Under the pieces are notes generated by a model. The model had not been told where the DNA came from. It saw nothing but the letters and a program-made list of their open reading frames with translations, and did not search any database. Made by a program: the position numbers and the translations under genes. A stretch of DNA of 63,691 nt, filler included, from Globobulimina sp. (taxonomy: Eukaryota): assembly GCA_003354225.1 (NCBI GenBank). It is 12 parts of 12 records of this genome, joined end to end, with 100 filler letters (N's around TTAATTAATTAA, not from the genome) between each part and the next. Parts side by side here need not be neighbours in the genome. Positions count along the whole stretch, not along the records: positions 31,936 to 37,151 come from PIVH01000668.1; 11 more parts are not named here. One strand, given 5' to 3'. The number at the start of each line of letters is the position of its first letter. Positions within the stretch are counted from its first letter, which is position 1. Positions 31,836-33,966 of this stretch are shown here, one piece after another.

Positions 31836-31935
31836 NNNNNNNNNNNNNNNNNNNNNNNNNNNNNNNNNNNNNNNNNNNNTTAATTAATTAANNNNNNNNN
31901 NNNNNNNNNNNNNNNNNNNNNNNNNNNNNNNNNNN
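31836..31935. other. Artificial contig-join spacer
   Basis: N44-TTAATTAATTAA-N44. Confidence 0.98.
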
Positions 31936-32143
31936 ACACCCTGGTTGATAAGTTGTATACATTCGATTCAATTATCTGAGAAACGCGTTGCAAATCCAGA
32001 AACGGTTTGCTATATGTTTGTCTTGGGTTTGTTCTGCGTTTATTATAACTCTGTCTTGGGTTTGCAAATCGAGAACAAAGTCAGAACAAATTTATAATTG
32101 AATTTTCAGTATACAAAGGAAATTATAGTGAGGTTAATGAAAA

Positions 32144-33097
32144 TTAACCACCAAAACAGCCTCCATATCCAAAAACGAGATGAACAGTTGATTCAATCCC
32201 AATATTATAATCCTTAACAGTTCTATCTACATCCATAACTTTGCCTACATAAACTAAACGTTTCTGTGACATCCATGGAATTCCTTCTTTGTCAAACAAT
32301 TTCAATTTCACACTTCCTATTTTCTCTGTTTCACAAACTCTGAGAACCACAGTTTTCCCAACTCTGAGAACCACAAATATTTTGAAATTGTTATCTTCTG
32401 ACAAACTGCGGGATTTCCTATACATTTCATTCTTTTTTTGCTGCATATATTGAATGTAATCGTTACACCAAACCATTGACTCATTGAATTCTCCAAAATA
32501 TGCAATCACAATATCTTTCAATATACGTCCGAGTGTAGCACCAAATAAACAAATTAACGATGCATCCACACTCTCATAACATTGTTTTAATTTGTTTACA
32601 CTGAATGTGCGAAGCAAAACTAAATCACCTTTGTGTATTCCAGTACCTCCCGCATACCGCCCATTGCATTGTATTGCGTTTTTGAGAAACACTTTATGCG
32701 CAGTTTTGTGTTGAACAGCAGCACTTACATTCACTACATTTTTTTCTGAAACAGGATGCTGTAATAACTCAATTATTCCACTGCAACATTTTGAGAGAGT
32801 GATTGCCGGCGACCATTGATTTCGGAATATATCCAATTTGATAACACCACATTCGCTCACGTTTGGATGATATATTTTTGTTATCATGCGAATTTTTGGA
32901 GGTCTAAATGGATAATCTGCAGGAATTTCTATTTTTAGTTCATATCTTCCATTGGCATATGGTGTTTCTGCAGGTCCCATGACATGGCCTTTCCATTGAA
33001 ATAAGTTGTCACAATTGATAGGCTCTAGGGAATACGAGGCTGACTGTTGTTTGTTGATTTTTTTTAACTCGTCTGTCAATCGTTTGAGAGCAGACAT
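32144..33097 (-). CDS. Ubc4/5-like E2 fold (catalytic Cys replaced by Lys) + linker + C-terminal ubiquitin-like domain
   Basis: MSALKRL, GPAETPY, PADYPFRPPK and TKIYHPNVSECGVIKLDIFRNQWSPA. Ubl: FKIFV..GKT..IGSVKLKLFDKEGIP..RLVYVGK..DRTVKDYNIGIESTVHLV..GG. Confidence 0.9.
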   Translation of the reverse strand: MSALKRLTDELKKINKQQSASYSLEPINCDNLFQWKGHVMGPAETPYANGRYELKIEIPADYPFRPPKIRMITKIYHPNVSECGVIKLDIFRNQWSPAITLSKCCSGIIELLQHPVSEKNVVNVSAAVQHKTAHKVFLKNAIQCNGRYAGGTGIHKGDLVLLRTFSVNKLKQCYESVDASLICLFGATLGRILKDIVIAYFGEFNESMVWCNDYIQYMQQKKNEMYRKSRSLSEDNNFKIFVVLRVGKTVVLRVCETEKIGSVKLKLFDKEGIPWMSQKRLVYVGKVMDVDRTVKDYNIGIESTVHLVFGYGGCFGG

Positions 33098-33147
33098 GGT
33101 AAATGTTTAGAAAACAGTTTTCCACTAAACATTGAATAATCATAATC

Positions 33148-33966
33148 ATGGCTTTACTTTCAATTTTATTAGCAACGGTATTGACATACACAACAAATGC
33201 ATTTCTTGGCATTGATGCAGCAGGCTCGACAATTTCCACAGCCAGTTATCAATGTTTAAGGAGCGGAGGTTATGACTTTGTAATTACGAGAGCATGGCAT
33301 TCAACCGGTTCATTTGACACTTTATCTGTGGCTAATTTAGCCAATGCGCAAGCCGCTGGCTATTCGGTGAGAAACACATCAGTTTATATGTTTCCTTGTT
33401 CATCAACTGCAAATTCTGCAACTTCACAAATGAATACAATGATTTCCGACTTAGATACTCGCGGCGCAAAATACAATATGATATGGCTGGACGTCGAGTA
33501 TAATCCAGGTATATAGCATAGATATTATACTGTGATATGCGCATATTACATATTAATAATATACACAGATTCTGGATGTGCGTGGTCCAAAAATACCATT
33601 GAAGTCAACTGTGATATAATATTAGCTCTAGGCAGCGCAGCGGAGGCCAAAGGTAAAAAAGTTGGCATATATTCAAATCATAATGAATGGGGTGGTAAGT
33701 TTTACGTTTACATTTGATATGAAATATGCAACAATATATACGAAAATAAAGGATATGTGTTTCACGGTGATTATACTGCGTGCAGTCAACCTGCAAAAGA
33801 AAAAAATTGGCCAGTTTGGTACGCTGATTATGACGGTGCTAAAAATTTTAATGATTTTGTTGCTTTTGGTGGTTGGACTAAACCGGTTATAAAACAATAT
33901 GCGGGCGATGCCAAAGTATGTGGCTTAGACGTTGATACTAATTGGGAGCCAGTTGCTGCTTCTTAA
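33148..33966 (+). CDS. Secreted GH25-like (protist-type) lysozyme, 3 exons
   Basis: Signal peptide, LGID, MIWLDVE, VGIYS, WYADYDG and FGGWTKPVIKQY. Introns 33509..33568 and 33695..33751. Confidence 0.9.

Follow-up and report, generated by a model that had tools for sequence, protein, structure and literature searches.

What can a ubiquitin-conjugating enzyme (E2) do once lysine stands in place of its catalytic cysteine and a ubiquitin-like (Ubl) domain has been joined to it in the same chain? The question is raised by an open reading frame (ORF) in a stretch of 63,691 nucleotides of DNA from Globobulimina sp. (assembly GCA_003354225.1), which is made of 12 parts joined end to end and is termed here the window. 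The ORF lies on the minus strand, within the part taken from record PIVH01000668.1, and encodes a Ubc4/5-type fold, a linker and a Ubl. We think it about an even call that the product is a selectively maintained foraminiferal pseudo-E2 that forms no thioester, fused to a Ubl derived from polyubiquitin, and that it is not an enzyme but a regulator, decoy or adaptor.

The fusion protein and its active site

The ORF (P0001; 32144..33097, minus strand) comprises 317 codons followed by a TAA stop, without interruption and without introns. Starting at the N-terminus, residues 6–142 (32672..33082) form a UBC domain of the Ubc4/5-UBE2D type (Pfam UQ_con, E = 1e-38, 132.6 bits, cut-off 27), whose best relatives in the PDB found by phmmer are Ubc4 and UBE2D1–3 (~40% identity, E down to 1.5e-33). 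The N-terminal sequence MSALKR aligns from residues 1–3 of solved E2s, so the 5′ end of the gene is complete. After the UBC domain the chain forms a linker of ~88 residues (150–237; 32387..32650), for which there is no match to any Pfam family, and then continues as the Ubl (residues 238–313; 32159..32386), in which Pfam places a ubiquitin domain at residues 246–308 (E = 5.8e-13, 48.9 bits, cut-off 25.4). The Ubl aligns to ubiquitin repeats from residue 238 to 311–313 with one residue inserted, at ~48% identity. The final four residues, CFGG (314–317; 32147..32158), form a C-terminal extension when aligned with relatives of the protein. Both domains exceed the Pfam gathering scores. A single intronless ORF joins them, as the first-pass annotation of this DNA had it; that description of the ORF, the motif and the codon was correct in every particular. 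A tblastn search of the window for a second copy of the protein returned the self-match only.

The structure was predicted with AlphaFold2 using an alignment of 72 rows, giving a mean predicted local distance difference test (pLDDT) of 85 and a predicted template-modelling (TM) score of 0.60. The pLDDT exceeds 90 in the UBC part (residues 1–150) and is ~90 in the Ubl, falling below 50 in the last five residues. The linker is predicted to form helices at residues 156–162, 167–201 and 211–230, with pLDDT of 59–84. Using Foldseek the modelled UBC domain superimposes on UbcH5 chains with a root-mean-square deviation of ~1.0 Å and a TM score (target) of 0.93–0.97. The alpha/beta fold of the UBC family is therefore found by Pfam, by AlphaFold2 and by Foldseek alike.

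The HPN motif of E2s is present (H77-P78-N79; 32861..32869) and the catalytic cysteine that forms the thioester is absent. The active-site stretch reads HPNVSECGVIKLDIF, and phmmer alignments place Lys87 (codon AAA, 32839..32837) opposite the catalytic cysteine of Ubc4 and UBE2D chains. It also lies opposite a lysine in PDB chain 5d0k_A (GSIKLDIL); PDB entry 5ulk, whose title names a UbcH5b~Ub conjugate, has the same sequence. AAA differs from both cysteine codons (TGT and TGC) at all three positions, and so there is no single-base route to it from cysteine. The proposal of a natural Cys-to-Lys substitution within an otherwise intact Ubc4/5 fold is thus upheld.

The codon was checked against contigs from the Logan resource for four public sequencing runs (X1, X2, X3 and X6, from three studies) aligned to 32100–33150; X2 and X3 come from one sample, and X1 may be the source of the assembly itself. 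Codon 87 is spanned by contigs of all four runs with no difference listed there. The X6 contig derives from a variant that is ~95% identical (20 differences in 449 bases), and still carries the lysine codon.

Other positions that serve the chemistry and contacts of canonical E2s have changed. The loop that reads N-P-x-D in 100% of 38 canonical E2s (N114, P115 and D117 in UbcH5) is V-S-E-K here, and across the four Lys-type proteins described below the query columns 116, 117 and 119 read V/S/V/R, S/I/L/T and K/N/D/Q. In canonical Ubc4/5 enzymes N114 and D117 serve aminolysis. In the Ubl the equivalent of L8 of ubiquitin is Arg and that of I44 is Val, and on the crossover helix of the E2 the equivalent of L104 in UbcH5 is Ser106. 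With the L8 and L104 equivalents replaced, the contacts of the canonical closed E2~Ub state are not preserved, and this arrangement, which the protein's own Ubl might have mimicked by folding back, is not favoured on the basis of these residues. Among the positions that contact E1 and ubiquitin ligases (E3s), helix 1 (R6, E10 and K12), F64 (F62 in UbcH5) and the S96-P97-A98 (SPA) loop (S94-P95-A96 in UbcH5) are canonical in the query.

A family of E2–Ubl fusions

An exhaustive phmmer search against 1.84 billion representatives returned mostly polyubiquitins, together with five proteins that align over the whole query (P0048, P0094, P0120, P0143 and P0145). A sixth relative (P0273) was gained by a search with residues 1–225 of P0048. 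All seven proteins, the query included, contain UQ_con and ubiquitin domains above the Pfam thresholds, a residue other than cysteine at the catalytic column, and a family-specific linker with the common motifs YAGG, LFG..LG.I and IV..Y.G. The fuller pattern YAGG...LFG..LG.I...IV..Y.G...C.DY is common to the proteins with lysine at the catalytic column (the query, P0048, P0094 and P0273; 4/7), and is shared in part by the three with serine (P0120, P0143 and P0145). P0048, P0094, P0273 and the Ser-type P0120 are from Bolivina argentea, P0143 is from Nonionella stella and P0145 comes from an ENA metagenome contig. Presumably these homologues come from transcriptome-based sets. The fusion family has so far been seen only in foraminifera or in environmental sequence, and B. 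argentea and N. stella are the only named sources of full-length relatives, which bears out an early guess that the setting would prove rhizarian or foraminiferan.

Other searches did not return the family. The word-indexed homologue search with the query alone gave two matches among 737 candidates, both generic E2s, and that with an alignment of the N-terminal part (A2) gave 148 matches among 5745 candidates, mainly canonical E2s with scattered non-Cys variants, and no family members. A metagenome scan with the query found two loci, generic E2s only. In the ESM Atlas the best clusters scored 0.80–0.81, below the 0.9 level, and contained UQ_con only.

In the Ser-type proteins the HPN motif is replaced by HCN. 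The cysteine of HCN was considered as a relocated nucleophile in these proteins and rejected, as HCN also occurs together with a normal catalytic cysteine (P0315 and P0328). It is found rather than HPN in 53% of the 38 closest canonical, Cys-bearing E2s (P0155–P0192), and cysteine for the proline of HPN seems on these sequences to be a trait of the lineage of these mostly environmental or foraminiferal E2s. Serine at the catalytic site is the other classic engineered substitution that gives a stable conjugate.

A background of Ubc4/5-like loci was chosen on the motifs that flank the catalytic column, without regard to the active-site residue, and comprises 80 contigs of giant-virus type and two metagenome contigs; the former come from a scan of viral contigs with an alignment (A1) that found 443 relatives, of which 80 were kept, all UBC-only with cysteine. 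The catalytic column is Cys in 82/82 of the background loci and in 38/38 of the closest canonical E2s, against Lys in 4/4 members of the subfamily. Lysine also occurs in three E2D-like proteins of 124–127 amino acids outside the family (P0220, P0247 and P0270, the last a hypothetical protein of Sinapis alba), reading IKLDIL or VKLDIL, so the substitution arises sporadically elsewhere. These were found, along with several more that have serine, in a set gathered with the family profile that is deliberately biased, and are probably truncated or decaying copies. Ubc4/5-like paralogues from B. argentea that lack a Ubl (P0309, P0341 and P0281) have Gln, Asp or Ala at the column, a sign of a large expansion of non-catalytic E2-like proteins in this lineage.

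A tree of 53 UBC domains has a branch that separates the four Lys-type domains from the rest, with a Shimodaira–Hasegawa-like approximate likelihood ratio (SH-aLRT) support of 98; the separation persists when the catalytic column is removed. Their end branches are 1.0–1.8 changes per column long, where the median is 0.21. Over this divergence 35 of the 152 UBC columns remain invariant among the four, mostly Gly, Pro, Trp, Tyr and His of the core. Lys87 is one of these, and is moreover one of nine that are invariant yet unlike the canonical consensus, a group that also holds Tyr22, Gly37, Tyr52, Cys105, Ile109 and Asn145. All four proteins also keep the HPN motif. The 317-codon frame is open in the query and in related sequences. 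Comparison with the public runs gives a pN/pS ratio (nonsynonymous to synonymous differences, each per site) of ~0.24 for X6 over 32594–33042 (6.5 nonsynonymous and 7.5 synonymous differences in 352 and 98 sites respectively) and ~0.35 for X2 over 32200–33038, figures that are rough because only 14 of the 20 differences of the X6 contig are listed. The UBC part is under purifying selection.

The origin of the C-terminal module is suggested by its relatives. In the Ser-type proteins P0120 and P0143 the Ubl is followed by GG, a serine, MQIF and a near-perfect ubiquitin, and in P0094 the Ubl ends in an intact LRLRGG followed by CFIHGTKILLAN; from these two arrangements the module looks to be derived from polyubiquitin. 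It looks as though a Ubc4/5 gene had been fused with the end of a polyubiquitin gene. The single residue inserted where repeats meet seems to correspond to a signature of rhizarian polyubiquitin. P0143 has a further C-terminal region of ~250 residues with no Pfam match at E ≤ 0.001.

Probable regulation without ubiquitin transfer, and its alternatives

By the established chemistry of E2s, loss of the catalytic cysteine should make a thioester impossible. Taken with replacement of the N114 and D117 equivalents (by Val116 and Lys119), this means that the protein would not transfer ubiquitin as a normal E2 does. The E2 look-alike could instead occupy the partners that recognize E2s of the Ubc4/5 type, in a manner similar in logic to that of the UEV proteins, while its own Ubl might be displayed as a recognition module alongside the UBC surface. 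The invariant Lys87 would then point to a function that the former active-site cleft has kept.

Ubc4, Ubc5 and UBE2D have the same fold as the query and are its closest relatives in sequence, with HPN, F64 and the SPA loop all kept in the query; the differences are the lysine in place of cysteine, the replaced N114 and D117 equivalents, and the added 88-residue linker and Ubl. E2 look-alikes that lack the catalytic cysteine, the UEVs, are known regulators. The UEV proteins Mms2/Uev1 and TSG101 have a UBC fold without a nucleophile and work by binding (PMC2171356). The UBC fold of the query is likewise without its catalytic cysteine; unlike the UEVs it keeps the HPN motif, carries lysine in the active site and has a Ubl fused to it. 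Nor does it belong to their clade: among the best 60 PDB matches to the query none is named a UEV, all being of the Ubc4/UBE2D type or close to it. An inactive E2-like domain and Ub-like domains are also found together in one polypeptide in the bacterial polyUbl proteins (PMC11354881). The query joins the same two elements. The bacterial proteins are, however, encoded in prokaryotic operons with a JAB-E1 partner, whereas the UBC domain of the query is a derivative of eukaryotic Ubc4/5, and there is no sign of direct kinship between them. The protein probably regulates rather than transfers ubiquitin.

A number of observations weigh against a maintained pseudo-E2. There is no support for expression of the gene, none of the runs listed being recorded as RNA and X6 being RNA only by guess. 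The four Lys-type sequences come from only two organisms, that of the window and Bolivina, and their long branches expose the grouping to long-branch attraction; their kinship can however be argued independently of the tree from the linker that they share. The Gln, Asp and Ala of the Bolivina paralogues that lack a Ubl are as expected if the expansion tolerates loss of catalysis. The SPA loop reads NPM, KPW and MFN in the three Lys-type proteins of Bolivina, and the backside Ser23 is present in the query alone, being G, N and K in the other three. Thus docking of E3s or of E2 partners at these surfaces is not a conserved property of the family. In the Ubl, the X6 contig over 32161–32261 has four nonsynonymous and no synonymous differences, very small numbers, and the Ubl of P0273 is degenerate; constraint on the Ubl half may be weaker.

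The alternative that survives best retains a chemical role for Lys87. Ubiquitin carried by the activating enzyme (E1) as E1~Ub would be slowly aminolysed onto the lysine, giving a permanent isopeptide-linked E2–Ub that could act as an E3 trap, an allosteric activator or a signalling unit. Until now, a lysine for the active-site cysteine of an E2 has served as a laboratory means of locking the E2~Ub state. Lys87 sits where the engineered lysine does in the UbcH5b~Ub chains 5d0k_A, 5ulh and 5ulk, so that query and engineered UbcH5 C85K–Ub have the identical substitution in the identical column, and PDB entry 5tut is titled ‘UbcH5a-Ub isopeptide conjugate’. A potential acyl acceptor occupies the site in all seven fusion proteins (four Lys and three Ser), and the lysine is invariant although each branch has accumulated more than one change per site. 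The asparagine of HPN is kept. Residues R6, E10, L11 and K12 of helix 1 are invariant in the four Lys-type proteins while the E3 loop drifts; helix 1 is the surface by which E1 recruits E2s, but the same residues are structural too. The engineered proteins are laboratory constructs loaded in vitro, whereas the lysine of the query is natural and conserved, and the Ubl of the query is joined through the backbone and not to the lysine. Loading of the C85K protein reportedly requires high pH and long incubation, and the Gln, Asp or Ala of the Ubl-less Bolivina paralogues again count against this reading. We rate a natural stable conjugate as unlikely, if well worth bearing in mind, and judge it similarly doubtful that Lys87 is a physiological acyl acceptor onto which E1 loads either ubiquitin or a processed Ubl tail to give the permanent isopeptide. 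Were it so, the sister proteins with serine would give slow oxyester conjugates, and the family would be the first natural ‘non-dischargeable charged E2’, serving to trap, scaffold or allosterically switch E3s.

A quite improbable alternative is that the protein is a decaying or functionless paralogue within a lineage-specific expansion of E2s, its lysine a historical accident shared by descent. The very long branches, the loss of canonical residues in the active-site loop, the loss of E3-binding residues in relatives and the degenerate Ubl of P0273 would all fit, as would an 88-base contig of run X1 (depth 6) that joins 32263 to ~32099..32072, minus-strand text beyond the stop. This joint skips ~163 bases without GT-AG ends, and would terminate the protein after residue 278 with loss of the last 39 codons. 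X1 has no contig over 32100–32262, and none of the four runs has one over 32100–32160, such gaps being no proof of anything; the joint may reflect a deletion allele, unusual splicing or an artefact of assembly. Set against decay are the open 317-codon frame, the invariance of 35/152 columns including the structural core, and an architecture that is kept in seven proteins. Random residues at the catalytic site and a substitution ratio near 1 had been named beforehand as signs of decay, and neither is seen: the subfamily has Lys in 4/4, and pN/pS (~0.24–0.35) is not close to 1.

Very unlikely is self-conjugation, in which the C-terminal GG of the protein would itself undergo activation and then become attached to Lys87, in cis or in trans, or the whole protein would act as a large Ubl modifier. 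The query ORF does terminate in GG, ending HLVFGYGGCFGG before the stop, P0094 retains a perfect LRLRGG, and some Ubls without an Arg-containing tail use dedicated E1s. However, the LRLRGG of P0094 is followed by its cap, and by this alignment G312–G313 of the query are the homologue of the G75–G76 of ubiquitin, with CFGG an extension that looks like a cap in the style of polyubiquitin. A cysteine and an aromatic residue follow the Ubl tail in three of the four Lys-type proteins (the query, P0094 and P0273). The tail of the query Ubl reads FGYGG against LRLRGG, and is one residue shorter than that of P0094; the R72 and R74 equivalents are both Gly, and the lack of these arginines had led the first-pass annotation to doubt canonical activation by E1. 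The Ubl has the beta-grasp fold of ubiquitin, while LRLRGG or another exposed tail recognized by E1 is absent, the free GG at the terminus being one in form only. GG is absent from the C-termini of P0048 and P0273, half of the Lys-type set, although the transcript model of P0048 could be truncated. The last four codons and the stop (32144–32160) are not covered by a contig of any of the four runs, leaving the terminal GG without independent confirmation. The suggestion that the terminal GG is a mature conjugation end is thus not supported by the alignment, and its use as a conjugation handle is doubtful.

The extension could also be a CaaX-like box, making the protein a lipid-anchored E2–Ubl unit, by analogy with the membrane-anchored ubiquitin-fold (MUB/UBL3) proteins. 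In MUBs a prenylated Ubl binds an E2 of the UBC8 type, with inhibition of E2~Ub formation (PMC4996978), and a Ubl and a Ubc4/5-type E2 are thus paired in a regulatory unit that does not transfer; PDB entry 4x57 is among the fold matches to the query. The cysteine of CFGG is at exactly −4 from the C-terminus. It does not occupy that position in P0094 or P0273, however, FGG is a poor aaX sequence, and there is no match to the MUB family of Pfam at E ≤ 1. Moreover, the Ubl of MUBs is of another family, has a true CaaX box and acts in trans, whereas the query is one chain with a Ubl derived from ubiquitin. A lipid anchor is accordingly hard to credit.

Finally, that Cys83 (in SECG; 32849..32851), four residues upstream of Lys87, has taken over as the thioester-forming nucleophile of a protein that is still an E2, as had been offered as an alternative, receives next to no credence: there is a cysteine in the active-site loop, and P0273 has one two residues before its lysine, but the Cys83 column is Asn in P0048, P0094 and P0273, and is polymorphic in the query, with 32850 C>A giving Cys83>Phe in runs X2 and X6.

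Genomic setting and significance

The window has 34% G+C and is dense with long ORFs for typical proteins of eukaryotic cells, including a cyclic-nucleotide phosphodiesterase, a mu subunit of an AP complex, Snf7, and CAP-Gly and ankyrin-repeat proteins. The two neighbours of the fusion gene, Snf7 (convergent) and a GH25-like gene (divergent), suggest no functional link. The divergent neighbour (33148..33966, plus strand) begins 51 bases from the start codon, and its match to the GH25 lysozyme family is weak (E = 4e-4, below the gathering score). It seems to be continued in short ORFs at 33532..33717 and 33757..33966, which suggests short introns in an otherwise intron-poor stretch. The window also contains 22 runs of exactly 44 N, in pairs, about every 5.3 kb (for example 31836–31879 and 31892–31935). 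These look like deliberate masks and not like assembly gaps, and the Snf7 ORF is interrupted at its 3′ end by one such pair.

A search of open-access full-text literature and bioRxiv found no natural, conserved Cys-to-Lys E2 and no E2–Ubl fusion family of this kind. To our knowledge the ubiquitin system of foraminifera is almost unstudied. The family provides a lineage-specific marker and an example of the evolution of a pseudo-enzyme in Foraminifera, and it may reveal a new form of regulation of RING or E1 enzymes.

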